Positions 3,032-35,316 of a stretch of 64,000 bases of DNA are shown in pieces. The translations under genes were made by a program, and so were the position numbers. This stretch comes from an uncultured Chloroflexia bacterium. GTDB lineage: Bacteria; Chloroflexota; Limnocylindria; Limnocylindrales; CSP1-4. Numbering within the stretch: the stretch's first letter is position 1; every line of letters begins with the position of its first letter. A model generated the notes under the pieces. That model did not search any database. It was not told the DNA's origin and was given only the letters and a program-made list of their open reading frames with translations. Location: positions 736,001-800,000 of the forward strand of contig CAVPPB010000003.1 of NCBI GenBank assembly GCA_963707215.1, given 5' to 3'.

Positions 3032-3406
3032 TCAGCGGGCGACCCGGCGGGCGTCGACCTCGATCTCGACACGCAGTGCCGGATCGATGAGGCCGGCCAC
3101 CACGACCAGCGTGGCAGCCGGCCGGATGGCGCCGAAGGCCTCGCCGTGGACCCGGAGCACGGTCGGGATGTCGGCCGGATCGACGACGAAGACGCGTGTC
3201 CGCACGACGTCGGCTAGGGTGAAGCCGCCCTCGGCGAGTGCCCGCTCGATGATCCCGAGCGCCGCCCGGGCCTGGGTCTCCGCGTCGCCCTCGGCCCCCC
3301 CGGTCGTCCCGGCCACCCAGCAGTCGTCGCCGTCCACGACGGCCCGGCTGTAGCCGGCCGGGCCCTCCCACGGCGCGCCGCTGGAGATCCGGCCGCGCTC
3401 GGTCAT
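3032..3406 (-). CDS. RidA/YjgF family protein
   Basis: SSGAPWE..GYSRAV, VAGTT, DVVRTR, RPAAT, VEIEVDA. Confidence 0.9.
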   Translation of the reverse strand: MTERGRISSGAPWEGPAGYSRAVVDGDDCWVAGTTGGAEGDAETQARAALGIIERALAEGGFTLADVVRTRVFVVDPADIPTVLRVHGEAFGAIRPAATLVVVAGLIDPALRVEIEVDARRVAR

Positions 3407-4668
3407 GTCCGGCGCCAGGCGGCGATGACGGGATCCCGTGCGATGGCCAGGAGGAGGGCCGTGAGGAGCGTGGTCCGCGGCACGATCGAGGCGACCTCGA
3501 GGTATTCCTCGGGCGAGTGGTCCATCCCGCCGATGGGACCCAGGCCGTCGAGGCTGGGGATCCCCATGTCGGCGGTCGTGTTGGCGTCGGAGGCCCCACC
3601 GGTCGCCGTGTCGCGGAGCTCGAAGCCCAGACGGCCGGCGAGGTCGACGGCCAGCTCGACGAGCCGTCCCGACCGCTCGAGCTTCTCCATGGGCCAGTGG
3701 CGGGCCACCTCCTCGAGCTCGATCGCCACGTCGGGCACGGCGGGCGCGGCGGCAAGGTCCCCGATCGCCGACTCGACGGCCTCGAGGGACTCACGGGTGA
3801 CCGCCCGGACGTCCACCTCGAGAACGGCCCGCTCGGCCACGACGTTGGGGCGGGTCCCGCCCTCCAGGACCCCGACGTTGACGGTCACGCCCGGCCAGCG
3901 GTCGTTGAGGGCATGAAGGGCGACGGTCAGGTGGGCCCCGGCGAGGGTCGCGCTCCGGCCCTTCTCCGGCTCGACCCCGGCATGGGCGGCGCGGCCGCGG
4001 ACCGTGACCCGGAGGTGAAGGTTGCCCTTGCGCGACGAGACGATGTCGCCGTTCGCCCGGGCGCATTCGAGGACGAGGCAGGCATCGGCGCCACTGGCCA
4101 CCTCGCGGATGATCGGCGTCGAGGACGGTGACCCGATCTCCTCGTCGGGATTGGCCACGAAGACGAGCTCCCGGAACGGCAGGAGCGGGACGCCGCTCTC
4201 TTCGCCCCCGCGCGAGACGCGCAGCGTACGGACGGCGTAGAGGCCGGCCAGCAGGCCCGACTTCATGTCGGTGACGCCGGGCCCTCGGGCGATGCCGTCC
4301 TCCATGCGGAACGGACGCTCGGCCACGGTCCCCTCGGGGAAGACGGTGTCCATGTGGCCGATGAGGACCAGGCGCGGACCGGATGGGTCGCCGACGATCC
4401 GGCCGACGACCGTGCCTCCCAGTCGGCTCGCGCCATCCGGATGGCGTACGACATCGGCTCCGAGACCGGCCAGGAACGCCTCGACGAAGTCACCGACCCG
4501 GTCGACACCCTCCGGCGTGAAGCTGCCACAGTCGATGTCTACGAGCCGGGCGAGGTCATCGAGGAAGGCTGGTTCGTCGGCCCGGACCGCCGCCTCGAGC
4601 ATGGCCAGCTCGGTCGGCTCGATGCCATGGACCGGCGGCAACCCGAGGTCGATCGCGGACGCTCCCAT
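3403..4668 (-). CDS. M20 family metallopeptidase, carboxypeptidase G2-like
   Basis: GHMDTV, GPGVTDMKSG, DEEIGS, LECAR, HAGVEPEKG, GGASDAN, HSPEE zinc-ligand motifs. ATG 4668 lies 8 nt after TAGACT. Confidence 0.9.
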   Translation of the reverse strand: MGASAIDLGLPPVHGIEPTELAMLEAAVRADEPAFLDDLARLVDIDCGSFTPEGVDRVGDFVEAFLAGLGADVVRHPDGASRLGGTVVGRIVGDPSGPRLVLIGHMDTVFPEGTVAERPFRMEDGIARGPGVTDMKSGLLAGLYAVRTLRVSRGGEESGVPLLPFRELVFVANPDEEIGSPSSTPIIREVASGADACLVLECARANGDIVSSRKGNLHLRVTVRGRAAHAGVEPEKGRSATLAGAHLTVALHALNDRWPGVTVNVGVLEGGTRPNVVAERAVLEVDVRAVTRESLEAVESAIGDLAAAPAVPDVAIELEEVARHWPMEKLERSGRLVELAVDLAGRLGFELRDTATGGASDANTTADMGIPSLDGLGPIGGMDHSPEEYLEVASIVPRTTLLTALLLAIARDPVIAAWRRT

Positions 4669-4722
4669 CGGGGCCGAGTCTACGGTCTGGAGCGCCCTGC
4701 GGCTTGCTATGCTGCGCCGACC

Positions 4723-6480
4723 GTGCGACTCGTCGAGATCCGCCTCCTCGAGGGGCCGAACGTCTACCGTCTGGACCCGACGGTCAAGATCGAGGTCGGC
4801 GTGGGGCGTCGGCGGACCTGGCGCGGGGACCGGACCGGCTCCCCGGGCGCCGGGCCGCGCCTGGGAGAGGTCGCCCCGACCCGTGACCTGCCCGACGAGG
4901 TGGTCGAGCTGGTGGCCTGGTGTCGGCGGCTCCGGACCGACGCGGGCGATGGCGTGGGCGGCGTGGCAGCGCACCGGGCTGCCGACCCGGGGCACTGGGT
5001 CGTGAGCTTCCCCTGGGCCGGGGCCGAGCGTGCCCGGGCGATCGCCGAAGCGGCCGTGGACCTGGTCGCCGCCGGCGTCGCCACCGGCCGCCGGGCCGTC
5101 CCGACCGGCGCCCAGGCCCGTCGGCTGGCGCGCTGGCAGGCGCGCATCGCGGATGCCCGGACGAGCCCGCCCGGCTGGTTCCGCGATGAGGACCGGCGGA
5201 TGCCGATCGTCTCGATCAGCGGCACGAACGGCAAGTCGACCGTCAGCCGGCTGATCGCCCACATCCTCCGCGGCTCCGGCCGGCGGGTCGGGATGACGAC
5301 CTCGGACGGCGTCTACGTGGGCGAGCGGCTCGTTGAGCCGGGTGACTGGACCGGGCCCGGCGGCGCCGCGATGCTCCTCTCGCGCTCCGACCTCGACCTG
5401 GCCGTGCTGGAGACCGCCCGCGGCGGCATCCTGCTTCGGGGTGTCGGCTACGAGTCGAACGACGCCAGCGTCCTCACGAACGTCGCCTCGGACCACCTCG
5501 ACCTCCAGGGCATCCATACGCTCGCCGAGCTCGCCGACGTCAAGGCCACCATCTGCCGGATCACCCGGCCCGACGGTTGGGTCGTCCTCAACGCCGACGA
5601 CCCGCTGGTCGCCGCGGTGGCCCGCCGGGTCACCGCCAGGGTCGCCCTCTTCTCGCTCCAGGGCGAGCGCTCCGGGCGGATCCGCCGCCACGTCGCCCGG
5701 GGCGGCCGCGCCTACCTGGTGATCGACGGGGCGATCGTCGAGGTGGAGAGCGGTGCGACACGGGCGATCGCCGGCGTCCGGGAACTGCCCATCGCCCTGG
5801 GCGGGCTGGCCCGCTACAACGTCGCCAATGCGCTCGCGGCCGCAGGCGGGGCTCGGGCGCTCGGAGCCACGCTCGATGAGGTCACCGAGGGCCTCCGGTC
5901 CTTCGAACCGTCGACCGATCGCTCCCCTGGCCGCCTCAACCTGTTCCGGCTCGGGTCGCGGGTCGTCCTCGTCGACTTCGCCCACAACGAGGCGGGCGTC
6001 GAGGCGATCCTCGAGGTGGCCGCCGAGATCGCCGGCGGGGCTGCCGGCCGAGCGTCGCCGATCACCGCCATCGTCGGGACCGCCGGCGACCGACCCGAGG
6101 ACAGCCTGATCGCCATCGGACGGGTCGCCGCCGAGCGGGCCGACCGGGTCGTGATCAAGGAGACCCTCGGCTACCTCCGCGGCAGGGAGCGCGGGGAGAT
6201 CGTCGCCCGTCTGCTGGACGGGGTGGCTGCCGGCGGTGGGGATCCGGACGCGGTGCCCGTCTACGTATCGGAGACGGCCGCCCTGCGATCGGAGCTGGCC
6301 CGCGCCGACGAGACCAGCGACGGCCGGCGCCAGCTCTCGGGCATCCTGGTCCTTCTCTGTCACGAGGAGCGTCCGGAGGTCCTGGGGCTCCTGGGCGAGC
6401 TCGGAGCCCGCGAGCTCGACGTGATGGCCGAGCTGCAGGACCTGGCGCCCAGGCTCGGAGATCGGTCCCGACACGACTGA
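4723..6480 (+). CDS. Cyanophycin synthetase-like Mur ligase (CphA N-domain + M-domain, lacking the ATP-grasp G domain)
   Basis: N-terminus VRLVEIRLLEGPNVY parallels CphA LRILETRVLRGANYW. Then ISGTNGKST, GMTTSDG, GDWTGP, ETARGGIL, TNVASDHL, VLNADDP, PGRLN, DFAHN. No ATP-grasp motifs. Confidence 0.85.
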   Translation: MRLVEIRLLEGPNVYRLDPTVKIEVGVGRRRTWRGDRTGSPGAGPRLGEVAPTRDLPDEVVELVAWCRRLRTDAGDGVGGVAAHRAADPGHWVVSFPWAGAERARAIAEAAVDLVAAGVATGRRAVPTGAQARRLARWQARIADARTSPPGWFRDEDRRMPIVSISGTNGKSTVSRLIAHILRGSGRRVGMTTSDGVYVGERLVEPGDWTGPGGAAMLLSRSDLDLAVLETARGGILLRGVGYESNDASVLTNVASDHLDLQGIHTLAELADVKATICRITRPDGWVVLNADDPLVAAVARRVTARVALFSLQGERSGRIRRHVARGGRAYLVIDGAIVEVESGATRAIAGVRELPIALGGLARYNVANALAAAGGARALGATLDEVTEGLRSFEPSTDRSPGRLNLFRLGSRVVLVDFAHNEAGVEAILEVAAEIAGGAAGRASPITAIVGTAGDRPEDSLIAIGRVAAERADRVVIKETLGYLRGRERGEIVARLLDGVAAGGGDPDAVPVYVSETAALRSELARADETSDGRRQLSGILVLLCHEERPEVLGLLGELGARELDVMAELQDLAPRLGDRSRHD

Positions 6481-6571: not shown

Positions 6572-6973
6572 TCAGCCGGGCACCCGGCGGCGACCGCGGA
6601 GCATCCGAAGATGGCCCAGGAGCCCGATCAGAAGGATCGCCGTCGACCAGACGGGCAGCGTCCGGGCGACCGGGTCGGGCAGGAAGATGTCGGACACCCG
6701 CCCGTCGTCGGCGCCGAGATCCTCGGCGACCCCGGTCAGGGGACAGCGACCGCGGTTCGCCAGGAACACCCCGATCTCGACGGCGACGAGGCCGGCCGCG
6801 ACGGCTGTCGCCCGATCGAAGCGGCCACGAAGGCCGTCCCAGGTGAACCGAAGGATCGACCCGAGCAGCACGACGAAGATCGCGGAGTGGACGGTCTTGA
6901 TGGCGAAGAGCGCGATGCCCCGCGCCATTCCAGCGGCCCGCTGTCCCGTCTCCATCGCCGACTCGCTGGCCAT
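6572..6973 (-). CDS. small membrane protein with CPLT motif (DUF2784-like)
   Basis: Three hydrophobic segments, IKTVH and GRCPLT..AE motifs. ATG overlaps the cphA stop by 1 nt. Confidence 0.7.
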   Translation of the reverse strand: MASESAMETGQRAAGMARGIALFAIKTVHSAIFVVLLGSILRFTWDGLRGRFDRATAVAAGLVAVEIGVFLANRGRCPLTGVAEDLGADDGRVSDIFLPDPVARTLPVWSTAILLIGLLGHLRMLRGRRRVPG

Positions 6974-9921
6974 CAGCCCTCGGGCACCTCGAGCTCGCCC
7001 GGATCGGCGAACGCAGTCGTCCCGCGCTGGGCCCCGGCCAGCGACTGGGCCTCCTTGTAGACGCCGATCGCGTCGTCGACGCACATGACGACGAGGTCGC
7101 CGGGCACGGCCCGCCGCAGGGCTGCCCGGGCGGCCGTCAGCTCGTCGAGGATCGTCTCGGCTCGACTCGCCCGGGAAGTCCCGGCGTCGCGGGCCCGACG
7201 GGTCCCGGTCACCACGTTCCCGGCGCTCTCGCCCGGCTTGCGGCCCCGGAGGTTGCGGTCCTCGCGGACGACGATCTCGTCGAAGGCGCCCGCGGCGAGC
7301 TCGCCATAGGTGACCTGGTCGTCGTCGAGTCGGTCGCCGGGGATCCCGATGACGCCGATGGCCCGGCCCGTCCGACCCGGCTTCGCCTCGGCGACGCCCC
7401 GGGCGGTCGGCGGTCCGTCGGGCTCCTCCATCATCCGGGTCACGAAATCCGAGAGCTGGCGCATGCCGTCGACGTTGTGGCAGTAGTCGATGATCACGCG
7501 GACGCCGCCGACCTCGAGGAGGTTGAGCCGGCCCGGCGCCTGGAAGAACGACGTGGTGAAGGTTCGCAGCCCCTGGCGGATGTCGTGGAGGTGAGCGCCC
7601 GACGCCCAGGCGGCAGCCGCGGCCGCGAGGGCGTTGGCGACGTTCATCCGGGCCCGGCCGCCGAACGTCGCCGGGATCAGGTGGGTGTAGAGGACCGGCA
7701 TCGTGCGGGGGCCTAGGCGCAGGACGACGAGCTCGCCCTCGGGAGTCCGCTGGAGGCAGAACGCAGCGCCGCCCCGGCCGAGGTGCCCGTCCACGCGGTC
7801 ATAGCCGTCCTCGCCCTTCCCGGTCTGCATCGAGAAGAGGACGACCCGACCCGACGAGTGGCGGGCCATCCGGGCGACCAGCGGGTCGTCGGCGTTGAGG
7901 ACGGCCGTGCCCGAGCGCGGGACCGCTTCGACGATGACGGCCTTGACGTTGGCCAGCTGGCCGAGCGAGGTGATCCCGCCCAGGCCGAGGTGGTCGCCGG
8001 TGACATTCGTGACGACGGCCACGTCGTTGCGGTCGTAGCCCAGGCCCTCGCGGAGGATGCCGCCCCGGGCGACCTCGAAGACGGCCGTGTCCACGGTCGG
8101 GTTCTGGAGGACCATCTGGGCCGACTTCGGGCCCGACATGTCGCCGCGCTTGATCATCCGGCCGTCGACGACGATGCCATCGGTCGAGGTCATGCCGACC
8201 CGCCGGCCCATCAGCTTGAGGATGTGCGCGAGCATCCGGACGGTCGTGGTCTTGCCGTTCGTCCCGGTCACCGCAAGGATCGGGATGCGGGCCGGCTTCC
8301 CGGGCGGGAAGAGCAGATCCATGACCGGGCGGGCCACGTACTGCGGCTCGCCCTCGGTCGGGTGGGTGTGCATCCGGAAGCCGGGCGCGGCGTTGACCTC
8401 GACGATCGCGCCTCCGGTCTCGCGGACCGGCGTGGCGATGTCGGGGCAGATGAAGTCGATGCCGGCGACGTCGAGGCCCACGACCCTGGCCGCGGTCTCG
8501 GCGATCTCGACATTGTCGGGATGGGACTCCATCGTCCGGTCGATCGAGGTGCCGCCGGTCGACATGTTCCCGGTCAGGGCAAGCTTGATCCAGGCCTCCT
8601 TGGGCGGGATCCCGTCGATGGCGAAGCCCTGGGCGGCGACCAGCTCCTCGGCCCGCTCGTCGACGGCGATCTTCGTCAGGACCTTCTCGTGGCCGATGCC
8701 GCGACGGGGATCGGCATTGGCGATGTCGACGAGCTCCCGGACGGTGTGGATGCCGTCGCCGGTCACCGAAGCCGGGACACGCTCGGCCACGGCCGCCACC
8801 CTGCCCCCGATGACCAGGACCCGGTAGTCGGCACCGGCGACGTAGCTCTCGACGACGACGTCCCCGGAACGGCTCTGGCGGAGCGACTCCGGGAAGGCGG
8901 CCCGGACGTCGGCCTCGGAGCGCAGGTCGAGGGCCACCCCACGACCGTGGTTGCCGTCGAGCGGCTTGGTCACGCAGGGGTAGCCGATCCGCTCCGCCGC
9001 CGCGACGGCCTCGTCCGCCGTCTCCACGACGACGGCCCGCGGGACCGGCAGGCCGGCCGAGTCGAGAAGCTTGTTGGTCAGGCTCTTGTCGGAGGCGATG
9101 TCGACAGCGATCGCCGGCGTCCGCGAGGTCATCGTCGCCCGGATCCGCTGCTGGTGGACCCCCTGGCCGAGCTGCACCAGGCTGTAGCGATCGAGGCGGA
9201 TGTAGGGGATGTCGCGGCTGACGGCCTCGTCGATCAGGGCCTGGGTCGACGGGCCGAAGGCCTGCCGCTCGGCCAGCCGGATGAGGCGCTCGAGCTCGCT
9301 CCCGAAGTCGAAGTCGGAGGCCGACGGGTCCACCAGGTGGTTGACCAGGCCGACCGCCACCCTGCCAGCCTGCAGGCCGACGTTCTCCTCGCGGTACTCG
9401 TAGATGACGTTGTACTGGCCGGTCGGTCCGGCGCCGCGGGTCTTGCCGTGGCGGACGTCGGTCCCGGCGAGGTTCTGGAGCTCCAGAGCGACGTGCTCGG
9501 CGACGTGGCCGGCCCAGGTGCCGTCGCGGAGCCGGGTCAGGAAGCCGCCCCGCCGACCCAGCGAGCAGGCGTGGTCCTCGAGGCTCGGTAGGAGCTCGAC
9601 GAGGGTATCCACGAAGCCGGGGATCCGATCCGACGGGTACTCCTCCAGCGATCCGAGGTCGACGAGCATCCGGACCACCGGCTGGCGCGACCAGTAGTTG
9701 GCCCCGCGGAGGACCCGCGTCTCGAGGATCCGCAGGTCGGGCCGCGGACCGGCCGGGGCCTTGGGCCGCTTCGAGGCCCGGGAACGCGTCGCCGCCGGGG
9801 CCTTCGCCGCCCGTGCCTTGGGCGTCGCGCCCTTGCCGGCTGGCTCCCGCTCGGTGCCGCCGGTTCCCGCCTTGGCATCGGTCGACGCGGACCTGGATGA
9901 CCGGGCGGCGCGTTGGGCCAC
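6973..9921 (-). CDS. cphA: cyanophycin synthetase CphA1
   Basis: N domain with Cx19HxxEH; G domain FGPST, KPLDGNHGRGV, DPRRGIGHEKVLT, EVNAAPGFRMH; M domain VTGTNGKTT, EVARGGILREGL, PGRLN. Confidence 0.97.
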   Translation of the reverse strand: MAQRAARSSRSASTDAKAGTGGTEREPAGKGATPKARAAKAPAATRSRASKRPKAPAGPRPDLRILETRVLRGANYWSRQPVVRMLVDLGSLEEYPSDRIPGFVDTLVELLPSLEDHACSLGRRGGFLTRLRDGTWAGHVAEHVALELQNLAGTDVRHGKTRGAGPTGQYNVIYEYREENVGLQAGRVAVGLVNHLVDPSASDFDFGSELERLIRLAERQAFGPSTQALIDEAVSRDIPYIRLDRYSLVQLGQGVHQQRIRATMTSRTPAIAVDIASDKSLTNKLLDSAGLPVPRAVVVETADEAVAAAERIGYPCVTKPLDGNHGRGVALDLRSEADVRAAFPESLRQSRSGDVVVESYVAGADYRVLVIGGRVAAVAERVPASVTGDGIHTVRELVDIANADPRRGIGHEKVLTKIAVDERAEELVAAQGFAIDGIPPKEAWIKLALTGNMSTGGTSIDRTMESHPDNVEIAETAARVVGLDVAGIDFICPDIATPVRETGGAIVEVNAAPGFRMHTHPTEGEPQYVARPVMDLLFPPGKPARIPILAVTGTNGKTTTVRMLAHILKLMGRRVGMTSTDGIVVDGRMIKRGDMSGPKSAQMVLQNPTVDTAVFEVARGGILREGLGYDRNDVAVVTNVTGDHLGLGGITSLGQLANVKAVIVEAVPRSGTAVLNADDPLVARMARHSSGRVVLFSMQTGKGEDGYDRVDGHLGRGGAAFCLQRTPEGELVVLRLGPRTMPVLYTHLIPATFGGRARMNVANALAAAAAAWASGAHLHDIRQGLRTFTTSFFQAPGRLNLLEVGGVRVIIDYCHNVDGMRQLSDFVTRMMEEPDGPPTARGVAEAKPGRTGRAIGVIGIPGDRLDDDQVTYGELAAGAFDEIVVREDRNLRGRKPGESAGNVVTGTRRARDAGTSRASRAETILDELTAARAALRRAVPGDLVVMCVDDAIGVYKEAQSLAGAQRGTTAFADPGELEVPEG

Positions 9922-9962: not shown

Positions 9963-10799
9963 TCAGCTCTCGGCGGCCTCCACCCCGGCCGCCGTCCGAA
10001 GAGTGGGGGTCGCGATCCGCTGGCGTCGGACCAGGTCGAAACGATAACCGGCCGGCAGCGAGTGGAGGACGACGTTGCTCACCATGACCGGCCGGTGCCC
10101 GCGGACGTCCCAGGCGTCGGTCTCGGAGGCCGACCCATCCACGACCGTGACGCTGCCCCGGCCGATGACCTCCAGGACATGGTCCGGGCCGACGACGCCG
10201 GCCGTGTCCTCGTCGACTCCCAGCCCCAGCAGGCTGGGGTTCTGGGCGATCAGGCTCAGCAACCGGCCCAGCCGGTTCCGCTGCTGGAAGTGCTGGTCGA
10301 CGATCACCCCGGGCAGCACCCCGAGCCCGACCGCGATCTGGGCCATCCGCTGCTTCGGCGTCCCGCCGGAGGTGCCGAAGGCGATCATGTGGCTGCTCAT
10401 CGCCGAGGCTCCCGCGGAGGTCCCCGCGACGACGTTGCCTGCTCGATGGGACTCCAGGATCGCCGCCGCGAGGCGGGTGGCGCCCAGCGTCGCCGAGAGC
10501 TTCAGCTGGTTGCCGCCGGTCAGGAAGACGCCGGTCGAGGCCCCGACCAGGGCGACGGCGGCCTCGTCGTCGGCCTCGGCTCGGGTCGTCGCGTGGATCG
10601 GATGGACACGACGGACACCGAGATCACCGAAGACCTCCCGGTAGCGCTCGGCCGCCTCGACCCCCAGCGACGAGGCCGTGCTGATGACCGCGATCTCGGC
10701 CCGCGGGCCACCGGCCAGCGCCACGAAGCGCTGGAGGATGACACGGTCGCGGAACCTGTCCTCCGCGCCCCCGATGACGATGACGGTGCCGTCGGCCAC
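9963..10799 (-). CDS. cphB: cyanophycinase (peptidase S51)
   Basis: IGGAED, TGGNQ, GTSAGA (catalytic Ser), DQHFQQRNRLGRL, GVDEDT; immediately upstream of cphA. Confidence 0.95.
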   Translation of the reverse strand: MADGTVIVIGGAEDRFRDRVILQRFVALAGGPRAEIAVISTASSLGVEAAERYREVFGDLGVRRVHPIHATTRAEADDEAAVALVGASTGVFLTGGNQLKLSATLGATRLAAAILESHRAGNVVAGTSAGASAMSSHMIAFGTSGGTPKQRMAQIAVGLGVLPGVIVDQHFQQRNRLGRLLSLIAQNPSLLGLGVDEDTAGVVGPDHVLEVIGRGSVTVVDGSASETDAWDVRGHRPVMVSNVVLHSLPAGYRFDLVRRQRIATPTLRTAAGVEAAES

Positions 10800-10926: not shown

Positions 10927-13017
10927 TCAGTGGATCGGGCCGACCGCCTGGTCCAGCGAGGCGCCCCGGAACTCCGACGTGTCCACGAGGCGATGGATCC
11001 TGCTGAGCAGCTCGCGGGCGCTGGCGGGCTTGACCAGGTAGTCGCTGCAGCCGATCGCCTCGGCCTCGGCGATGTCGGCCGCGCTCGAGTTGGCACTGAC
11101 GATCACGATAGGGACGTCGAGGCCGGCCGAGCGGACCTGGCGCGCCAGCTCCAGGCCGCTCCCATCGCCGAGGCCGACGTCGAGCACGATGATGCCGGGC
11201 GTGGACAGCTGGAGCGCCTCTTGGGCAGCCGCCAGGCTCGCCGCCTGCTGGACCTCGTAGCCGGCGCTCGAGAGGACATCGGTGACGAGCTCACGGGCCG
11301 TCGCGTCGTCTTCGACCACCAGGACCGGCACGGACCCCGGCGGCGGAGCGGGCGGCAGTGGCATGATCCGGATCGAGCGGTCGCGCGGCGACGCGATCCG
11401 GACCCCCGGCAGCGAGACGACGAAGGTGCTGCCGATCCCGTACGTGCTGGAAACGTCGATCGAGCCGCCGTGGAGCTCGCAGAGCCGCCGGGCGATCGCC
11501 AGACCCAGCCCCGTGCCGGAAGAGGTCGAGCCCAAACGCTCGAAGGGCTCGAAGACGCGGTCGAGGCTCTCAGCCGGGATGCCGACCCCGGTGTCGTGGA
11601 CGGCGATCCGGACGTCCGCTTCGTCGATGGACGAGTCGATCCAGACGCGCCCACCGGGGGCCGTGAACTTGATCGCGTTGGTCACTAGATTGAGCAGCAC
11701 CTGCCGGAGGCGGAGTGGATCCACCAGGACCCTGGCCTCGGTACGGTCCACCGCCGCCAGCTCGACGCCACGATCGCGAGCGACCGGGGCGGCGGCATCC
11801 ACGGCCTCGAGGATCAGGGCCTGGAGCTCGATCGGCTCGGGGTGCAGCTCAAGGTGGCCCGAGTTGATCCGGGCGAGGTCCACGACGTCGTCGATGAGGC
11901 CCAGGAGGTGCTTGCCGCTGGCGTGGATCTTGGTGCCCAGCTCGCGCATCCGATCCTCGGTCAGGGCGCCGAGCGCGGGATCGCTGACGAGCTCGGCCGC
12001 GATCAGGATCGAGTGCACCGGCGTGCGCAGCTCGTGGCTGACCGTGGCCAGGAATCGGAGGCGCTGCTGCGCCCCCTGCTCGAGCTCGGCGTTGAGGCGG
12101 TCGAGCTCCTCGACGAGGCGGGTCATCCGGCCGTGGATCCGGGCGTTGACCAGGGCGCCTGCGGCGTGCGCCGCGAGGGCGATGGCGAGCTCGCGATCCG
12201 CGTCATCGAACTCCGCCCGGCCGACCTTGTTGGCGAAGTAGAGCCTGGCCAGCATCTCGCCGTCCTTGACGACCGGGACCCCGAGGAACGACGTCATGAC
12301 CGGGTGGCCTCTCGGCACGCCGACGGATGCCTGGTGAGCCCGGAGGTCGGCCAGCATCACCGGACCGCTGTCGGCGGTGATCAGCCCGAGCACGCCCCTG
12401 CCGACCGGGAGCGGCCCCATCCGCTCGACGGTCTCGGGCTCGATGCCCTGGTGCAGGAACCGGTCGGTCGCCCCCTCGTCGCCGACGACGAGCATCGCGG
12501 CGTACTGGGCGCCCATGATCGACCGCGCCATCGTCAGGATGAGGTCGTGCACCTGCGCGGGCTCCCGGACGTCGGCCAGGGCGAGCATCGCCGAGCGGAT
12601 CCTGGATTCAGAGTCGCGGGCCCCGTCGATGACGGACTGCAGCGGGCCTCGATCGATGACGGTGACGAGCAGGGCGTCCGGTCCTGCGAGGGGCCGCTCC
12701 GGTCCGCCGGGCCGATCGTGCCACGGCCGCACGAGCAGACAGACGGGCATCGCGCGACCATCCGGGGCGACCATCCGGCACTCCACGTCGACGGCATCGG
12801 ACCGGCCGGCGAGGACCGCGCGCGCCCGTTCGACGATGCCAGGCGCGTCGCCGGGATCGAGCGCCCCGGCCAGGGACCGAACCTTGAGAACGCCAAGGTC
12901 CATGCCGACCAGCTCTCCGAACGGAGGGTTCGCGTGGACCCACCGGAGATCTCGGTCCAGCACCGCCATCGCCAGTGGGACGGCGTCGACCAGGTCGCGG
13001 ATGTGCTCGGATCCCAT
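10927..13017 (-). CDS. hybrid sensor histidine kinase (PAS-GAF-HisKA-HATPase-REC)
   Basis: PAS-like start; DosS-like GAF (GRGVLG...GHPVMTSFLGVP); SHELRTP H-box; NLVTNAIKFT, DTGVGI, GTGLGL; C-terminal receiver (VVEDD, LD, KP). Start uncertain (13017-13248). Confidence 0.9.
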   Translation of the reverse strand: MGSEHIRDLVDAVPLAMAVLDRDLRWVHANPPFGELVGMDLGVLKVRSLAGALDPGDAPGIVERARAVLAGRSDAVDVECRMVAPDGRAMPVCLLVRPWHDRPGGPERPLAGPDALLVTVIDRGPLQSVIDGARDSESRIRSAMLALADVREPAQVHDLILTMARSIMGAQYAAMLVVGDEGATDRFLHQGIEPETVERMGPLPVGRGVLGLITADSGPVMLADLRAHQASVGVPRGHPVMTSFLGVPVVKDGEMLARLYFANKVGRAEFDDADRELAIALAAHAAGALVNARIHGRMTRLVEELDRLNAELEQGAQQRLRFLATVSHELRTPVHSILIAAELVSDPALGALTEDRMRELGTKIHASGKHLLGLIDDVVDLARINSGHLELHPEPIELQALILEAVDAAAPVARDRGVELAAVDRTEARVLVDPLRLRQVLLNLVTNAIKFTAPGGRVWIDSSIDEADVRIAVHDTGVGIPAESLDRVFEPFERLGSTSSGTGLGLAIARRLCELHGGSIDVSSTYGIGSTFVVSLPGVRIASPRDRSIRIMPLPPAPPPGSVPVLVVEDDATARELVTDVLSSAGYEVQQAASLAAAQEALQLSTPGIIVLDVGLGDGSGLELARQVRSAGLDVPIVIVSANSSAADIAEAEAIGCSDYLVKPASARELLSRIHRLVDTSEFRGASLDQAVGPIH

Positions 13018-13365
13018 GTGCCGCCCAGGCCCTCTCCGCTCCAAGCCCGGCGGGATCGCCGGGGGACGCGCGCCGGTCGGGCGATTGTGCTCGTTGGAAC
13101 CGAGGGCGTCTACCCGCATCCGGGGGGTCTCCGGGCCGGGGTGCCGCTCCGGGTGCAGGGGACGGCCTGCTGCATTCGCGGGGCCGCTCCATCGGCTGCT
13201 GCGTGCGGCGCCCGTTGACGGCGCCGGTATGGTTGAGGCTCGGCTCACCGCTGCCGTGCCGGATGTGGTTCCCAGGGTACGTGCCCGCCCGGGGAGGACC
13301 GACCGGCGCTCGGGGAGGGGCGGGGTCGATCATGGGCCTGCGTCTTCCGGGGGAGGAGGACGAGG

Positions 13366-14163
13366 ATGGCAGGGGGTGTCTTCGGCCGACCCGAGATCGG
13401 CTCGACCGGTCCGCACGTAGAGGAGCGGGCCGCGCCGGTCCCGGGCGGGGCGCGCTCGAGCAGCGCCACCGGTCCGGTCCGCCCACCCGAGACGGCTCCG
13501 GCGAGCCCGATCCGGGTGATGGTGGTGGATGATCACCTGGCGTTCGCGGAGGCGCTGGCCATGGTCATCACCGCGCGCCCGGATCTCGACTGCCCGGTCA
13601 TCGCGACGTCGATCACCGACGGCCTGCGGGCCGCGGAGCGCGAGGCCCCGGACGTGATCCTGCTCGACGTGCTGCTCCCGGACGGCGACGGCGTCGACGC
13701 GATCGACCGGTTCCGCGACGCCGCGCCCGGTACCCGGATCCTGGTGCTGACCGGCCACATGGACCTCGACGTGCTGACGCGAGCCGCGGCCTCGGGGGCA
13801 AGCGGCTTCCTCCAGAAGGAGAGCAACGTCGAGGCGATCGTCCGGGCCATCCGGGCGGCACGGGACGGCACGATCCTCGTCGAGCAGGCGACGCTGACCT
13901 CGATCCTCGGCCGGGTCCGCCAGGGCGCCGCCTCGGCCGGGGCGGCGGACGACCGTCCCCACCTGACCGCCCGCGAGATGGACGTCCTCGCCCTGATGGG
14001 CGAGGGGCTCGACCCGCACGCCATCGCCCAGCTGCTCGAGATCAGCCTCAATACCTGTCGTGGCTACCAGAAGAGCCTCATGGCCAAGCTGGACGCCCAC
14101 AGCCAGCTCGAGGCCGTCGTGATCGCCACGCGCCGAGGGATCATCCAGCCGCCCAAGAGCTGA
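13366..14163 (+). CDS. NarL/FixJ family response regulator (REC + LuxR HTH)
   Basis: VVDDH, LLDVLLPDGDG, GASGFLQK, LTAREMDVL..G....IA..L.IS..T; GGAGGA RBS upstream. Confidence 0.92.
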   Translation: MAGGVFGRPEIGSTGPHVEERAAPVPGGARSSSATGPVRPPETAPASPIRVMVVDDHLAFAEALAMVITARPDLDCPVIATSITDGLRAAEREAPDVILLDVLLPDGDGVDAIDRFRDAAPGTRILVLTGHMDLDVLTRAAASGASGFLQKESNVEAIVRAIRAARDGTILVEQATLTSILGRVRQGAASAGAADDRPHLTAREMDVLALMGEGLDPHAIAQLLEISLNTCRGYQKSLMAKLDAHSQLEAVVIATRRGIIQPPKS

Positions 14164-14236: not shown

Positions 14237-14352
14237 TCGCCCCTCCAGTTGCGGGCTCGTCGCCCGGTCCATCGACCCCGACCATAGTCGCGTCCGCCCG
14301 TGGAGGGAACGTGGCGGTGGAGGATGACCGGTCCGGTCGAGGAGGGAAATCG

Positions 14353-17300
14353 ATGGACCGCTTGCGCGCTGTGCCTGTGCGCGCCGTGCGTGCACGAGCA
14401 CGGGCGGCCGCGCCGCCCGACCCCCGTCGTCGCCGGTCCGCCGCAACGGCTCCGATGTCACGGTCGATCCGGCCGCTGGCGTTCCTGGTGGCCGCCGTGG
14501 CGATCGCGCTCGGAGGGATCGGCACCGCCCACGAGTACCACCACGAGCTCCACGAGCACCACGAGCTGCCCCCCATCCTCCACTTCGGTCGTGACGCCGC
14601 GCTCGCCCTCCCGTTCGCGGTCGTCGCGGTCCTGGCCGCGACCGTCCTCTGCCTTGCCGTCCTCCGTCACGGCCGCAGCGCCGCCACCTCGATCGGTCTG
14701 CGCCTCCTCTGGGCGCTGAGCGCCGCCGGCGTCTTCGCCGCCCTCAGCATCCCGGGCAACGAGCTCCACGGGCGCCTGTTCGCCGCCGAGCACACCCTCG
14801 AGCTCGGCTGGCTGGAGCACGCCCTGCGTGATGCCGGCTTCGTCTTCGCCGGCTCCGCGATCGCCGCCGCCCTCGTCGCCGTGACGATCGGCCCACCGTG
14901 GCCGACCCGTCGCCTGGCGGCCTGGCCGCGCGCCTCGAGGCCCAGCGCCGGCCTCCTCGTCCCCGTCGCCCGGAGAGTGGGCGCGGCGTTCCTGGGCCTC
15001 GCGGTCCTGGCCTCGCCGATGCTGCCCTTCCCCACTCCCGCGTTCGTGCCGCCGGTCGAGGCGGTCGAGCCCGGGGTGGCGGCCGAGTGCGTCCGCACCG
15101 TCACGGCCGACGTCGTGGCGCTGGACCAGCCCTTCTACTACAACCGGCTGGGCGCCATCAACGCCAACGGCATGATCTACGCGCTCGCCCGGGACGTGGT
15201 CGTGAACGCCGGCGTCGCCGGCCTCGCCGGTCGCCCGCTGAGCGAGCTGACCGATGCCGAGCGGGAGACCGTAGACGGCCAGGTCTCGCTCCGAGCGGAC
15301 AAGCGACCTCGGCCGCTGACCCTCCGGGTGAATGAGGGGGACTGCCTGGCGATCCACTTCACGAACCTGCTGGACCCCGTCGGGTTCATCTTCGACCTGC
15401 CGGCCGACTTCCCGACGGACCCGATCCTGGGCCTCGGCGTACCGATCAACCAGCAGGTCGACAACCAGCCGCTCACCCGCGTGGCGTCGATCCATGTCGA
15501 CGGCCTGGAGCTGGTGAACGGCATCGCCGACGACGGTTCGCGCGTGGGCCGGAACCCCGCTGGCAGCAGTGTCGTCGCGCCCGGCTTCAGCACCGACTAC
15601 ACCTACTACGCCCCGGACAAGGGCACCCACCTGCTCTACAGCATGGGCACGACCCTCGGCGCGGAAGGCGACGGCGGGACTCGCTCCTACGGGCTGTTCG
15701 GAGCGGTCAACGTCGAGCCAGGCCCGACGGGCACCTTCCCCGGCTCGCTCTGGTACCGCAGCCAGTTGACCCGCCAGGAGATGGACTGGGCCACGCCTCC
15801 CGAGACGTTCACCGACTGGAACGCCAACGGGACCTGGGACGCCGGCATCGCCGAGCCCCTGACCGACTGGAACGAGAACGGGGTCCAGGACAACGGCATC
15901 GCCGAGCCCCTGACCGACTGGAACGAGAACGGGGTCCAGGACAACGGCATCGCCGAGCCCCTGACCGACTGGAACGAGAACGGGGTCCAGGACAACGGCA
16001 TCGCCGAGCCCTTCACCGACGTCGATGGCGGCACCCCTGGCGTGTACGACCTGGGCGAGCCGTTCACCGACTGGAACGAGAGCGGGGCCTGGGACGCCAG
16101 CGTCGACGAGCCGTTCACCGACTGGAACGAGAGCGGGGCCTGGGACGCCAGCGTCGACGAGCCGTTCACCGACTGGAACGAGAGCGGGGCCTGGGACGCC
16201 AGCGTCGACGAGCCGTTCACCGACTGGAACGAGAGCGGGGCCTGGGACGCCAGCGTCGACGAGCCGCTCGTCGACACGAACGGCGACGGGATCTGGAACG
16301 CCCACCAGGCGACCCCGGGCGGCCAGCCGATCCTCGACTACTTCGCGACGTACCCGCTGGAGGCCGGGCCGGCGAAGGCGGGCCTGCCGATCCTCAGCAT
16401 CCTCACGCCCGACCTGGAGATCATCCACTCGGACCTCAACGCGATCGTCGACGACCGCGGCTTCCCGTACCCGGACAACCAGGCCTACCCCAACCGCGGC
16501 GAGGAGCCGTTCCGCGAGTTCACGGTGATCTTCCACGACGAAGGCGTGGGGGTTCAGGCGTTCCCCGGCTTCTACAACGACCCGGTCCTGCGCCACACCC
16601 TCCACGGCGTCGTGGACGCCTTCCCGATCAACTACGGGTCGGGCGGCATCGGTTCGGAGATCATCGCCAACCGGCTCGGCGTGGGTCCGATGTGGGACTG
16701 CGCCGAGTGCAAGTACGAGGAGTTCTTCCTCACCTCGTTCACGGTCGGCGACCCGGCCATGATCGTCGACGTCCCGGCGAACACGACCGACGCCGCGGGC
16801 GCCATCATCCCCGGCCCCAAGGCCACCAAGGCCCTCTTCCCCGACGATCCGTCGAACGTCCACCACGCTTACCTGGGCGACCGGGTGGTGTTCCGCAACC
16901 TGCACGCCGGGCCCAAGGAGCACCACATCTTCCACCTGCACGCCCACCAGTGGCAGTTCAACCCGGACGACCCACAGTCGAACTACCTCGACGGCCAGGC
17001 GGTCGGGCCGGGCTCCGGCTACACCTACGAGATCGCCTATGGCGGGTCGGGCAACCGGAACCTCACCCCGGGCGACTCGATCTTCCACTGCCACTTCTAC
17101 CCGCACTTCGCCCAGGGCATGTGGGAGCTCTGGCGGGTCCACGACACCTTCGAGCCCGGGACGCTCATGGAGACCGACCCGACCGACGGCCTGCCGTGGC
17201 CGGCTGATGGCGCGCGCGCCCTGCCGGACGGGGAGATCGTCCGCGGTACGCCCATCCCGGGCGTGGTCCCGATGCCCGGGACGCCGATGGCGCCGATCCC

Positions 17301-20300
17301 CGACCCGGCTGCGACGATCGTGGCCCACGACCTCGACGGGGACGGCGCCCCCGACTCCAGCCAGTTCGACGCGAACGGCGACGGCATCGCCGACATCCTC
17401 CAGCCCGACGACCCGACCGCCGAGCCGGCGACGAACCCCGGCTACCCATGGTTCACCCCGGGCCTGGTCGGCCACCGGCCGCCCACGCCGGCGCTGGACC
17501 TCATCGACGACGGCGGCCTGCCACGCCACGTGGTCGCGAGTGGCCCGCTCGAGGACAACCCCGGCCACGCGGGGCCGCCCGTCGATACGTACGTCTCGCG
17601 GCTCGACTTCAACAAGGTCCTCCACGAGGCCTCGGCGATCCAGCTCCCGGAGGACGGCACCCCGGCGGAGCAGGTCGCCATGGCCTTCCACGCCGGCCCC
17701 GGCGGAGGCGACCCGACCTACGACAGCTTCTTCCCCGACGGTGCACCGGCCACGGGCCCGGACGGGTTCGAGGTGAACGGCTTGCCACCGGTCCGTGGCG
17801 CGCCCTTCGCCGATCCGTGCCGTGCCTTCAACGGCTCAGGGCCCTGGACCCTCGACTACCCCAACGGGACGGTGCGGACGATCAAGGGCGCCAACATCGA
17901 GATGCCGATCGTCCTCAACAAGGTGGGCTGGCACTTCCAGCAGCAGCGCTTCGAGGCGCTCTGGGAGGACGTCGTCCCGACGTTGACGAACGCCCGTGCC
18001 CCGCAGCCGATGATCATGCGGCTCAACAGCACCGACTGTGCCGAGTTCCACCATGCCAACCTGGTGCCGAACGTCTACCAGCTCGACGACTACCAGGTCC
18101 GCACGCCGACCGACATCATCGGCCAGCACATCCACTTGGTGAAGTTCGACGTCATGAGCGCCGACGGGTCGGCCAACGGCTGGAACTACGAGGACGGGAC
18201 CCTCAGCCCGGACGAGGTCCGCGAGCGCATCGACGCTTTCAACAACGGCGGCGGCCTGGTCCAGCTCGACGGCACCACGACGACGGCGCTCGCGCCGGAG
18301 GCCCATCCGTACTTCGGAGCGACCGGCCCGGACGACCAGGACTGGCGCGGCGCCCGGACCACCGTCCAGCGCTGGTACGCCGACCCGCTCCTCGAGCGAG
18401 CCTGGGACGGTGGCGTGGGCACCGTCTTCACCCACGACCACTACGGCCCGTCCACGCACCAGCAGGTGGGCCTCTACTCGACCCTGCTCGTCGAGCCGAA
18501 GGGCTCGACCTGGCGCCACAACGAGACGGGCCAGGCCCTCGGGACCAGGGCGGACGGAGGTCCCACGACCTGGCAGGCGATCATCCAGCCGGGGACCGGA
18601 GCGAGTGACGCCAGGTTCAAGCCCCACCGCGAGTTCTACTTCGAGTTCGCCGACTTCCAGCACGCCTACGAGCGGAACGGCGGCGCCCTGGGAGCCCAGC
18701 CGAACGAGGCCGTCCTCGGCCCGGCCGAGACGATCCCGTCGTACGCGGACTTCGACGACGCCATCAACCCATCGTTCCGGCTGCCGCCGCCGGACCCGGC
18801 CGACATCTACATCCACCCGAACTACTGCCCAGGCACGACCTTCGACGCGGCCGGCAACCCCCTCAACGTCGTGGCCCGACCATGCCCCGAGGCGATCTCG
18901 GCCGACGACCCGGGCACGTATGCCCTGAACTTCCGCAACGAGCCGATCGGCCTGCGGGTCTTCAACGGCCAGGTCGGCCCGGGCGCCGGCCAGTCGCCCG
19001 GCCTCGCCGGCGACATCGCCCACGCCTACCAGTCACGGACGGACCGGGCGATCCCCGAGCTGAACGTCCAGCCCGAGACGAACGGCATCTCCCCATACCC
19101 GCCGCTGACCGCCGACGTCCAGCCCGGCGATCCGTGGACCCCGATGCTCCGGGTCTACATGGGCGACGACGTCCGGATCCGGGTCCAGGTGGGCGCCCAC
19201 GAGGAGGAGCACAACTTCACCATCCCCGGGCTCAAGTGGAAGCAGGAGCCCAACAGCGAGAACTCGGGCTGGAAGAACAGCGAGTTCTTCGGCATCGACG
19301 AGTACTTCAACCTCGACGTGCCGATCGTCCCCGACACCGGCTCCGGCACCCCGGCCCGGGTCGACTACATCTACACGGTCGGCGCCGAGCTCGAGGGCAT
19401 GTGGAACGGCGTCTGGGGCGTCCTCCGCAGCTACAGCAGCCAGCGAAACGACCTGGTGGAGCTGCCGAGCAACGACGTGGGCCGCAACGGCTACGTCATC
19501 ACCAACGACGCAGACTTCGACGGGATCTGTCCGACGACGGCACCGGTGGCCTCGTTCGACGTGACGGCCGTCCGGGCCGTCGACGTCCTGGACCCGGTCC
19601 AGGGCCTCGTCTACAACGAGCGGCTGACGACGCTCCGCGCACCGCTCGGCGGCGTCAACGGACAGGGCCCGCTCATCGACCCGACAGCGCTGATGTACGT
19701 GCTCGACCAGGACCTGGTCCGCGACGCGACCGGGGCCCCGACGGGCTTGAAGCCGGGCACTCCGATCGAGCCGCTCATCCTGCGGGTGAACGCGGGCGAC
19801 TGCGTCCTCGTGGACCTCACGAACGCGCTCCCGCCTGACCTGTCCGGGACCGAGATGCCCGGCCTCAACGCCCTGCCGCCCATCGTCCAGAAGGACGTCG
19901 ACGTGGCGGTCCCCGGCGTCGGCGGGATCCTGACCTTCAACAGCAATGACCTCACCCCCTCGAGCAAGGTCGGCCTGACACCGCAGCTGCTCGCCTTCGA
20001 CCCGCGGACCGACGGCGGGTTCAGCACGGGACTCACCACCGGCCGGCTCGTCGAGCCGGGTGCCACCGGCCGCTACCGCTGGTACGCCGGTGACGTGACG
20101 GTGGCCAACGCCGGTGTCCAGGGCAACCGAACCAGGTTCACCCTGTCGGCCAGCCCGGTCGAGTTCGGGGCCACCGGCCTCATGCCCGCCGACCGGATCA
20201 AGGGCGACGAGAACGGCTTCGTCGGCGCGCTCATCGTCGAGCCGCAGGATTCGTGCTGGATCGCCGACCCGGGCACCCGGGCCCAGGCCACGGTCTGGAA

Positions 20301-28812: not shown

Positions 28813-28816
<4 letters not shown>
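28538..28816 (-). CDS. small hypothetical protein (SFEFLLxREP...SIL..FDL..I.RYFP)
   Basis: ATGA overlap with the metH stop; natural-looking 92-aa globular sequence. Confidence 0.75.
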
Positions 28817-32528
<3,712 letters not shown>

Positions 32529-32532
<4 letters not shown>

Positions 32533-34469
32533 CGCTCGGCCACCACGGCCACGGGCACGGTAGCCCGGATCCGCCGGACCACCTCGGCCGCCTGCTCGTA
32601 GCGACCGAAGCTCGGCATGAGATACGTCCCGGCGACCTCGCCGCGGACCGCCTCGACGAGGTCGAGGGCCAGCTCGACGCCGACGGCCGCCCCGCGATCG
32701 CCCGCCCCGGCCATGGCGACCCGGGCCGCCTCGGGGACCGTGATCCCCGGCACCTCGTTGTGGAGGAACTCGGCGTGGCGGGCGCTCTGCAGGGGGAGGA
32801 TCCCCAGCAGGACCGGCACCGGGATCCCGCCCGGCCCGAAGCGCCGCCGGGCCTCGGCCAGCATCGCCTCCACCTGGGCGACGTCGTAGAGCGGCTGGGT
32901 CATGACGAGGTGGGCGCCGGCGGCCAGCTTGCGCTCGAGGCGGTCCCACTCGGTCGCCGCGTCGGCGGCCGTCGGGTCCAGGGCGCAGGCGATCGTGAAG
33001 CCGGCCCGCTGGCCGATCGGCGTGCCGGCCTGGTCCTCCCCGGCGTCGAGGCGGGCCAGGATCTCGATGAGGCCGATCGAGTCGACGTCCCAGACGCCGG
33101 TCCCGGTCGGGTAGTCGCCGACGTGGGGCGGATCGCCGGTCAGCGCCAGGATGTTGCGGACGCCGAGCGCATGAGCGCCGAGGAGCTCCGATTCGAGGGC
33201 CATCAGGTTGCGATCGCGGGTGGTCACGTGGACGACGGTCTCGAGCCCGACGTCCCGCTGGATCGCGAAGGCCACGGCCAGGGCGCCCATCCGGACCCGG
33301 GCCATCGCCGAGTCGCTGATGTTGACCACGTCCGCGCCGGCGTCCCGGAGGAGGCGGGCCGCCTCCAGCGTCCGGTCCATGCGGATCGAGCGTGGCGGGT
33401 CGATCTCCACGGACACCACGAAGCGCCCGTCGGCGAGGGCGCTGGCCAGCTTCGTCGGTGGCGGTGGGGCCCCGGTCCCGTCCTCGACCGGTTCGACCGG
33501 GGTGGCCCGCGGCGGCGGAGAGCCGACCGACGCCGGGTGGGCCCCTGTGACCTCTGCTGCGGCGGCCACCGGCGCGGCGGCCCCGGACCGGTCGGCGTCG
33601 AGGGCGGCGCGCATGGCCGCCACGTGAGCCGGCGTCGTCCCGCAGCAGCCGCCGACGAGGGCCGCGCCGGCCGCCACGAAGGTCCCGGTCATCGAGGCGA
33701 GGTACTCCGGGCCGGCGGCGTAGAGGAAGCGGCCCTCGACCCGCTGGGGAAGACCGGCGTTCGGCATGATCGAGCGGGCCAGGCCAGGCCCGGCCATCCG
33801 GTCCAGCGCGTCGAGGCAGGCGATCGGCCCGACCCCGCAGTTGACGCCGATGACGTCGACGTCGGCGCCAGCCAGGGCGGCGGCGGCGACCTCGGGCGTC
33901 GAGCCGTCACCGGCGACCAGCTCCTCGCCGAACGTCATCTCGGCCACGATCGGCAGCGCGCAGGCCGCCCGGATCTCGGCGATCGCCGCCAGCAGGTGCC
34001 CCAGATCGAAGAACGTCTCGACGACGAACAGGTCGACCCCGCCCTCCAGCAGGCCCTCGACCTGCTCGCGATAGGTGGCCCGGACGTCGGTCTCGGCGAG
34101 GTGGGCAAGCTCCCGGGTCGGCGCCCCGAGCGGCCCCACGGAGCCGGCCACCAGGACGTCGCGCCCACTGACCTCGCGGGCGTCCCGGGCCAGGCGCGCG
34201 GCTCGGCGGTTGAGCCGTCCTGCTTCGGTGCCCAGGCCCCAGCCGTCCAGCCGATGCCGGTTGGCCCCGAAGCTGAGGGTCTCGATGAGCTCGGCGCCGG
34301 CCTCGAGGTACTCGCGGTGGAGGGTCGACACCAGCTCGGGGCGCGAGGAGACGAGCTCGTCGAGGCAGGCCCGCTGGGGGATGCCACGGCTGAACAGGAG
34401 CGTGCCCATGCCGCCGTCGGCGAGCAGCGGCCCCCGGCCCAGTCGCGCTGCGAATGCCGCCCGTTCCAT
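32529..34469 (-). CDS. yitJ: bifunctional homocysteine S-methyltransferase / methylenetetrahydrofolate reductase
   Basis: ADGGMGT, GVNC, GGCCGT, then MTHFR motifs [29 protein letters not shown]. Confidence 0.92.
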
Positions 34470-34501
34470 ACCCGACAGGGTAGCCCTCCGGGCGTGCCCG
34501 G

Positions 34502-35314: not shown

Positions 35315-35316
35315 GA

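Follow-up and report, generated by a model that had tools for sequence, protein, structure and literature searches.

An M20-family amidohydrolase gene kept beside the cyanophycin genes of Limnocylindrales: a candidate beta-Asp-Arg dipeptidase

The sequence analysed here (the window) is a stretch of 64,000 nucleotides, with a G+C content of about 74%, from an uncultured Chloroflexota bacterium of the order Limnocylindrales. The subject of this study is one gene in it, which encodes a metallo-amidohydrolase of the M20 family (M20 below; the protein is P0001) and lies beside a cluster of cyanophycin (cph) genes. All features of the locus are collected in Table 1. M20 starts with an ATG at 4668 on the minus strand and stands head-to-head with a gene that starts with a GTG at 4723 on the plus strand and encodes a paralogue of cyanophycin synthetase without the ATP-grasp (G) domain (the G-less CphA or G-less ligase). 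The latter gene converges on cphA1, whose product contains the Cyanophycin_syn N domain, the ATP-grasp domain and the Mur ligase domains of Pfam, and cphB comes after cphA1. On the other side, the ATG of the RidA gene overlaps the stop codon of M20 (ATGA, 3406-3403). Beyond RidA are an open reading frame (ORF) without a Pfam match and then an alpha/beta hydrolase gene, while AzlC/AzlD genes are found farther out on the plus strand, where they converge on this run, which is on the minus strand.

Table 1. Features of the M20/cyanophycin locus (positions in the window)
Feature	Position	Strand	Basis
M20 family metallo-amidohydrolase, 421 aa (P0001)	3403..4668	-	open frame; PF01546 and PF07687
Divergent control region, 54 bp	4669..4722	.	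TAGACT on the minus strand and TATGCT on the plus strand
CphA paralogue without ATP-grasp (G) domain, 585 aa	4723..6480	+	TIGR02068, positions 474-840 only
Full-length cyanophycin synthetase CphA1	6973..9735	-	TIGR02068, 1122 bits (cut-off 850)
Cyanophycinase CphB (S51)	9963..10790	-	TIGR02069, 249 bits (cut-off 126.6); Pfam Peptidase_S51
RidA/L-PSP family protein, 124 aa	3032..3406	-	PF01042

The linkage between M20 and the cph genes was evaluated first of all in the family of the window (f1), using a sample of 81 genomes from 49 genera in which matches with E <= 1e-40 were counted as M20 orthologues. An M20 orthologue was found in 71 of the 81 genomes and a match to the G-less ligase or CphA1 in 51. 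When both are cross-tabulated, 51 genomes have M20 together with cph genes, 20 have M20 without cph genes, 10 have neither, and none has cph genes without M20. This asymmetry, namely that M20 without cph genes occurs and cph genes without M20 never occur in the f1 sample, is the most telling result of our analysis. In 47 of the 51 cph-bearing genomes, M20 and the cph genes stand side by side and divergent on a single contig; in the remaining four (G024, G045, G080 and G093) both genes lie at contig ends, and in none of them are they clearly apart. Of 20 f1 loci fetched and searched by tblastn, 15 have the two side by side, one is interrupted by the end of its contig, and the other four belong to cph-less genomes.

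The same arrangement was found in f4, a second family of the class, where the ligase is present in 143 of 153 genomes and M20 is its divergent neighbour in 19 of 20 fetched loci, the other one being cut by a contig end. A few genomes flagged as unpublished are included in this ligase tally, in the f4 tallies of IadA and IaaA and in the class-wide AstE_AspA tally given below, and none is included in the fetched loci. Twelve more loci of Limnocylindrales type, taken from named records, carry the same M20/G-less pair; one of them is labelled Methylomirabilota and resembles f4. The source names of the close relatives of the ligase (63-100% identity) are Candidatus Limnocylindrales bacterium or Chloroflexota bacterium. 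With 47 of 51 genomes in f1, 19 of 20 loci in f4 and the 12 named loci, the clustering of M20 with cphA1 and the cyanophycinase gene goes beyond chance. The earlier note on this DNA had proposed synteny conservation as a check, and within the lineage the adjacency of M20 and the G-less CphA gene is indeed kept in two families. As for the two loci with unexpected labels, L098 (Methylomirabilota) and L099 (Thermohalobaculum), their clusters show identities to the window as in f4 (M20 55%, CphA1 about 64%), and they may represent mis-binning or recent transfer.

The flanks of the pair differ between the two families. On the M20 side, f1 has RidA and AzlCD, and f4 has a thioesterase gene and a 2-oxoacid dehydrogenase operon; beyond cphB, f4 has M16 peptidase genes. 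The core common to f1 and f4 therefore consists only of cphB, cphA1, the G-less ligase gene and M20. RidA is downstream of M20 in 12 of 20 f1 loci and in 0 of 20 f4 loci, and it is an operon partner of M20 in f1 only. M20 was not found in the cph-less families f2 (0/16) and f3 (0/2 at E 1e-70, 0/5 at E 1e-20).

Three enzyme families are known for the hydrolysis of the cyanophycin dipeptide. CphZ is an M14 hydrolase of the AstE/AspA type (PMC9974463, in excerpt), and IadA and IaaA are promiscuous isoaspartyl dipeptidases (PMC10206079, in excerpt). According to the excerpted text of Sharon and Schmeing (PMC10206079), many cyanophycin-encoding genomes lack IadA and IaaA, and the dipeptidases of some clades are still undiscovered; S9, M14 and cocaine-esterase-like enzymes are listed there as neighbours in cph clusters, and no M20 enzyme is named in that excerpt. 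The same excerpt states that all cphA1-bearing Actinomycetota have IadA/IaaA, which is not applicable here since the lineage of the window belongs to Chloroflexota.

In the window, no IadA, IaaA or CphZ-type gene was found by Pfam scans of about 40 ORFs, just as the earlier note had stated, and the statement can be extended to the whole assembly (completeness 84.8%), in which the best match to the IadA model has 22.9 bits against a cut-off of 331 and neither Asparaginase_2 nor AstE_AspA was found. In f1, IadA over the cut-off was found in 0 of 81 genomes, with one sub-cut-off match at 255 bits, and IaaA in 5 of 81. In f4, the counts are 0 of 81 for both. For AstE_AspA_cat, a class sample of 201 genomes gave 4/60 in f1, 2/66 in f4, 49/66 in f3 and 4/7 in f2. 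The check for anti-correlation that the earlier note had proposed thus speaks for it within this lineage, with IadA, IaaA and AstE/AspA nearly absent from the cph-bearing f1 and f4 genomes. It was also observed that AstE/AspA-type M14 genes, which are rare in cph-bearing f1 and f4, are common in the cph-less f3.

P0001 matches Peptidase_M20 (PF01546) with 89.5 bits (cut-off 24.6) and M20_dimer (PF07687) with 73.8 bits (cut-off 21). Its best NCBIfam match is PRK06133 (NF004788, 'glutamate carboxypeptidase') with 266.4 bits, which is below the cut-off of 349, followed by PRK07338 ('hydrolase') with 253 bits, below the cut-off of 357; TIGR01892 gives 87.5 bits against a cut-off of 297.7. With scores below the cut-offs of its best matches, P0001 falls in no curated equivalog. 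Among solved proteins CPG2 is the closest (1CG2; E 6e-44), and a Foldseek comparison with it gives E 7e-35, TM 0.81-0.88 and 30% identity. An AlphaFold model built from 31 orthologues has a pLDDT of 91.6 and a pTM of 0.89 and shows a two-domain fold. The top Foldseek matches are all M20 enzymes; besides CPG2, the best of them include PepT-like tripeptidases, a putative acetylornithine deacetylase, PahZ2 (7LJH, E 9e-24), DapE, carnosinases and ArgE. Judged by the Pfam domains, the best NCBIfam match and the closest structure, the label 'CPG2-like M20' given in the earlier note is a fair one. P0001 matches M20 families only, and IadA (TIGR01975), IaaA (PF01112) and CphZ (M14 AstE/AspA) have unrelated folds. 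Since its N-terminus has no signal-peptide-like stretch, M20 is probably cytoplasmic.

The two-metal ligands and the general-base Glu pair (H105, D134, E176/E177, E201 and H384) align to the CPG2 motifs and are invariant in the 31 orthologues and also in 26 wider homologues. Likewise invariant in the 31 orthologues are H229, N275 and R288 of the lid, which we take to correspond to lid residues with which M20 acylases hold the free alpha-carboxylate of the substrate and stabilise the transition state. CPG2 Arg324, presumably the residue that binds the glutamate side chain, aligns to W325, and this column is W, P or R among the orthologues; it is directly followed by an invariant Pro-Met-Glu328. 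Nine further residues (S49, L66, P174, A203, A205, D208, R257, W258 and D383) do not vary within the cph-linked clade but are seldom found in other homologues, which is no more than suggestive. D383 adjoins the last metal ligand. E328 and D383 would be placed to hold the guanidinium group or the Asp amino group of the substrate, and the residue features as a whole would fit a substrate of the N-acyl-amino-acid kind whose carboxylate is free and whose side chain is basic.

The partner of M20 has the Mur_ligase_M and Mur_ligase_C domains of Pfam and no ATP-grasp domain, and scores 380 bits with TIGR02068 (cut-off 850). Its layout is a CphA-like N-terminal segment, which falls short of the Pfam N-domain model, followed by a Mur-ligase-type M domain in which the GTNGKST loop is intact; the P-loop residues are invariant in the orthologues. 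It is about 43% identical to the neighbouring CphA1. In f1, 50 of 51 genomes have a match to the G-less CphA together with one to cphA1. In the remaining genome, the locus G067:C24:179939-182074 has an M20 match (residues 17-347) whose 5' end overlaps that of the ligase match (34-422, with one internal TGA), and neither cphA1 nor cphB was found; this locus appears to be decayed, and a deletion seems to run across the shared control region. A second, G-less CphA was also found after cphA1 in seven loci of other phyla (Polaribacter, two Lysobacterales, Rhodothermales, Planctomycetaceae, a gammaproteobacterium and Thermomicrobiales). Literature searches, whose coverage excludes subscription journals, returned no description of a G-less CphA, no M20 cyanophycin dipeptidase as far as titles and abstracts show, and no paper that joins cyanophycin with Limnocylindria.

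The divergent arrangement with its 54-bp gap and two hexamers, as reported in the earlier note, is exact in the sequence: TAGACT (4682-4677, minus) ends 8 nt before the ATG of M20, and TATGCT (4708-4713, plus) ends 9 nt before the GTG of the ligase gene. A simple sigma-70 consensus scan of 4400-5000 gave no full -35/-10 promoter (0 found, 0.0 expected) and no terminator. TANNNT stands 6-9 nt ahead of the ligase start in 15 of 15 f1 loci, and a TAGACT-like hexamer stands 6-8 nt ahead of the chosen M20 start in 12 of 15; in the other three it is farther off or absent, possibly from a wrong choice of start codon. This conservation exceeds chance and points to very short or absent leaders. In f4 (loci L048-L067), the gap between M20 and the ligase gene shrinks to about 24 bp and contains a single palindrome, AGTATACT, from which TATACT can be read on either strand. 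Of the 19 computed intergenic stretches, 14 have it, and among the five that do not, several clearly have a wrongly placed start. With a distance of 8-9 nt to the ATG of M20 and of about 7 nt to an ATG of the ligase gene, the palindrome looks like an overlapping bidirectional promoter for leaderless transcripts. Both families together suggest near-leaderless divergent transcripts and a shared control of M20 and the ligase.

We tentatively favour the reading that M20 is a hydrolase of the N-acyl-amino-acid type, predicted to be cytoplasmic, which has been recruited as a cyanophycin dipeptidase. We prefer it because the cph genes never occur without M20 in the f1 sample, because the pair is kept while the flanks change, and because the three known dipeptidase families are almost entirely lacking. 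M20 would then be a cytoplasmic, dimeric, two-metal amidohydrolase of the N-acyl-L-amino-acid/carboxypeptidase type. CphB would free beta-Asp-Arg from cyanophycin, and M20 would cut the bond between the Asp beta-carboxyl and the Arg alpha-amino group to give free Asp and Arg, thereby performing the last step of cyanophycin use in the f1/f4 lineage. An ancestral amidohydrolase with a broader role would have been recruited once, at the base of the f1 and f4 families. The substrate in this reading, beta-Asp-Arg, is one that we infer. The proposed chemistry of an M20 enzyme acting on beta-Asp-Arg is sound, and an M20-fold enzyme which cuts beta-aspartyl amide bonds is already known in PahZ2.

Several observations weigh against this reading. 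Firstly, 20 of the 30 cph-less f1 genomes keep an M20 orthologue. Fourteen of these 20 are at least 90% complete, two (G023 and G073) have M20 as a split or partial match only, and cphB over the cut-off was found in none of the 20, compared with 51 of 81 in f1 overall. M20 therefore has a role without endogenous cyanophycin, and it probably also serves other substrates or scavenged dipeptides. Secondly, a single clade (support 100/98) contains the M20 proteins of f1 and f4, one of them from a cph-less genome, so the linkage arose once and the loci are not independent events. Thirdly, the linkage was not found outside the class. M20 homologues at E <= 1e-70 exist in 99 of 401 genomes of the phylum, with 39-51% identity outside the class in this search, and among 20 loci from 11 other families, whose homologues are about 40-47% identical to M20, none has a cph gene within about 8 kb. 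Conversely, none of 20 cph loci of other phyla (L103-L122) has an M20-family ORF within 5 kb, as tested with a hidden Markov model (HMM) from the subfamily alignment at E <= 1e-5; as the seven G-less paralogues of other phyla are among the loci without M20 nearby, the ligase does not need an M20 partner. Fourthly, E328 is not restricted to the cph-linked clade and is found in 7 of 19 homologues outside it. Lastly, the genome of the window has about seven further M20 paralogues and the assembly is 84.8% complete, and an unlinked, unrecognised dipeptidase may therefore exist. The proposal of the earlier note that M20 is a cyanophycin dipeptidase is thus upheld in part: the linkage in f1 and f4 and the near absence of known dipeptidases speak for it, while the retention of M20 in cph-less genomes and its unlinked state elsewhere speak against it. 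The synteny holds in f1, f4 and the named loci of Limnocylindrales type and is not seen in the 20 loci from elsewhere in the phylum or in the 20 cph loci of other phyla.

Four of the 20 distant loci deserve a separate description. In L074, L075 and L076 (f25) and L079 (f47), M20 homologues with 41-43% identity directly adjoin a class I/II aminotransferase gene, and an Asparaginase_2 (IaaA-type) gene lies 0.3-3 kb from the M20 homologue; a family III CoA-transferase gene is present in two of the four as well. All four homologues beside the IaaA-type gene carry E328. The recurrent neighbourhood of these homologues would be a link to aspartyl-peptide metabolism and speaks for the dipeptidase reading.

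The main rival is that M20 serves amino-acid salvage or supply as a general amidohydrolase of N-acyl amino acids or dipeptides, for example by deacylating an N-acyl basic amino acid, and that its proximity to the cph genes reflects inherited gene order or a loose nitrogen co-regulation. This would account directly for the 20 cph-less f1 genomes with M20 and for the single origin of the linkage, and it agrees with the translational coupling of M20 to the RidA-family gene and the nearby AzlCD amino-acid exporter genes in f1, and with the aminotransferase, aldehyde dehydrogenase and arginase-family genes near homologues across the phylum. It does not readily explain why the junction of M20 and the G-less CphA gene was kept while the outer flanks on either side changed between f1 and f4, why M20 was lost in none of the 51 cph-bearing f1 genomes, or how cph-bearing genomes manage without any other recognisable beta-Asp-Arg hydrolase. 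We consider this rival rather unlikely, while giving it serious weight.

An improbable alternative is that M20 trims side chains, taking Arg or some other residue off the Asp side chains in the polymer or in oligomers and so opposing the G-less ligase as an editing pair. Trimming would break the bond that is also cut in the dipeptide, and on the polymer the side-chain Arg offers a free alpha-carboxylate. CPG2 accepts bulky or oligomeric acyl parts. So does PahZ2, according to the excerpted text of PMC13017698. The two genes are always head-to-head, and in f4 their -10 hexamers overlap in the palindrome of 14 of the 19 loci. An elaboration with similarly little probability in our estimate is a reversible, leaderless editing pair, in which the -10 elements, 25 bp apart here and fused in f4, could let polymerase exclusion toggle between charging and stripping. 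Against trimming, M20 survives in 20 genomes without any cph gene, the G-less CphA stands beside cphA1 in seven loci of other phyla without M20 within 5 kb, and M20 active sites close over small substrates (open and closed states, PMC9169645, in excerpt).

It is still less probable that M20 and the G-less ligase make and break some other small amide conjugate which is not derived from cyanophycin and are mere neighbours of cphA1-cphB. Mur-ligase-type enzymes and M20 enzymes do act on the same bond type elsewhere, presumably as in folylpolyglutamate synthase and CPG2, and the N-terminal segment of the ligase is under the Pfam N-domain model; however, the ligase is closest to the M domain of CphA1 (380 bits with TIGR02068, about 43% identity to its neighbour), its match accompanies a cphA1 match in 50 of 51 f1 genomes, and it adjoins cphA1 in other phyla as well. 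Finally, it is very improbable that M20 is a genuine glutamate carboxypeptidase of the CPG2 type with folates or other N-acyl-glutamates as substrates: although CPG2 is the closest solved relative and PRK06133 the best NCBIfam match, M20 scores 266 bits where 349 are required and the identity is only about 30%, the position of Arg324, with its presumed role in glutamate binding, is not conserved, and the N-terminus is unlike a signal peptide, while we take CPG2 to be periplasmic.

Other genes of the window are recorded here as observations in their own right. Directly past cphB (10927-14163) are a gene for a hybrid PAS-GAF histidine kinase with a receiver domain and a divergent gene for a LuxR-type response regulator; no tblastn match to this pair beside cphB was found in the other f1 loci. 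At 14311-23181 is a giant ORF of 2956 aa with repeated Big_9 and cadherin-like domains, whose product is probably a surface adhesin. It sits inside the stretch of about 21 kb (4.7-25.7 kb) between M20 and a GT87 glycosyltransferase gene, and in the cph-less relatives L044 and L046 GT87 is directly upstream of M20. Farther away, the stretch 28813-35384 has a B12-dependent methionine synthase gene followed by one for a fusion of homocysteine S-methyltransferase and MTHFR, with Fpg/Nei glycosylase and Lhr helicase genes on the same strand, and at 50530-51681 a gene for a baeRF family 3/7 (bacterial archaeo-eukaryotic release-factor-like) protein adjoins a GMC oxidoreductase gene.

The question matters since cyanophycin is useful to the cell only when beta-Asp-Arg can be split. 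Here is a class of abundant uncultured soil and freshwater Chloroflexota with cphA1 and cphB, almost none of the three known dipeptidase families, and one hydrolase fixed to the cluster. If the dipeptidase reading is true, M20 would be a fourth, unrelated enzyme family for the beta-Asp-Arg step, and also a marker of cyanophycin use where the pathway now looks incomplete. The pair of M20 and a CphA without the backbone-building domain may in addition reveal a side-chain remodelling of the polymer.

When compared with known systems, P0001 resembles CPG2 of Pseudomonas sp. RS-16 (1CG2, 6XJ5) in the two-domain M20 fold with a lid, the metal motifs and the Glu-Glu motif, and the lid equivalents of H229, N275 and R288 are kept if our assumed CPG2 numbering is right. 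The two differ in that the identity is about 30%, Arg324 is replaced here and there is an invariant Glu three residues on, the context is cyanophycin and not folate, and the N-terminus is unlike a signal peptide. DapE and ArgE (N-succinyl-diaminopimelate desuccinylase and N-acetylornithine deacetylase) share the family and mechanism with M20 and are fold neighbours; they act on N-acyl amino acids whose alpha-carboxylate is free, and the N-succinyl group is near the beta-aspartyl group in shape. However, M20 scores far under their NCBIfam cut-offs, as the value for TIGR01892 shows, and has another gene context.

PahZ2 of Sphingomonas sp. KT-1 (7LJH) is also a neighbour with an M20-type fold (Foldseek E 9e-24, TM 0.74-0.78), and the excerpted text of PMC13017698 describes its cleavage of the alpha- and beta-amide links of oligo-aspartate down to Asp. 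In contrast to M20, with which it shares 21% identity, PahZ2 is periplasmic, acts on synthetic poly-Asp oligomers and has no link to cyanophycin genes. The closest functional parallels are CphZ (PMC9974463) and IadA/IaaA (PMC10206079), which, going by the excerpts of these papers, carry out the reaction that we propose for M20, namely beta-Asp-Arg to Asp and Arg. Their folds are unrelated, being M14, amidohydrolase and Ntn-hydrolase, respectively, compared with M20 here, and the M20 activity here is predicted. Like CphZ, M20 clusters with cphA1 and the cyanophycinase gene, and, as is the case for CphZ in scavengers, it is also found in genomes that encode no synthetase.

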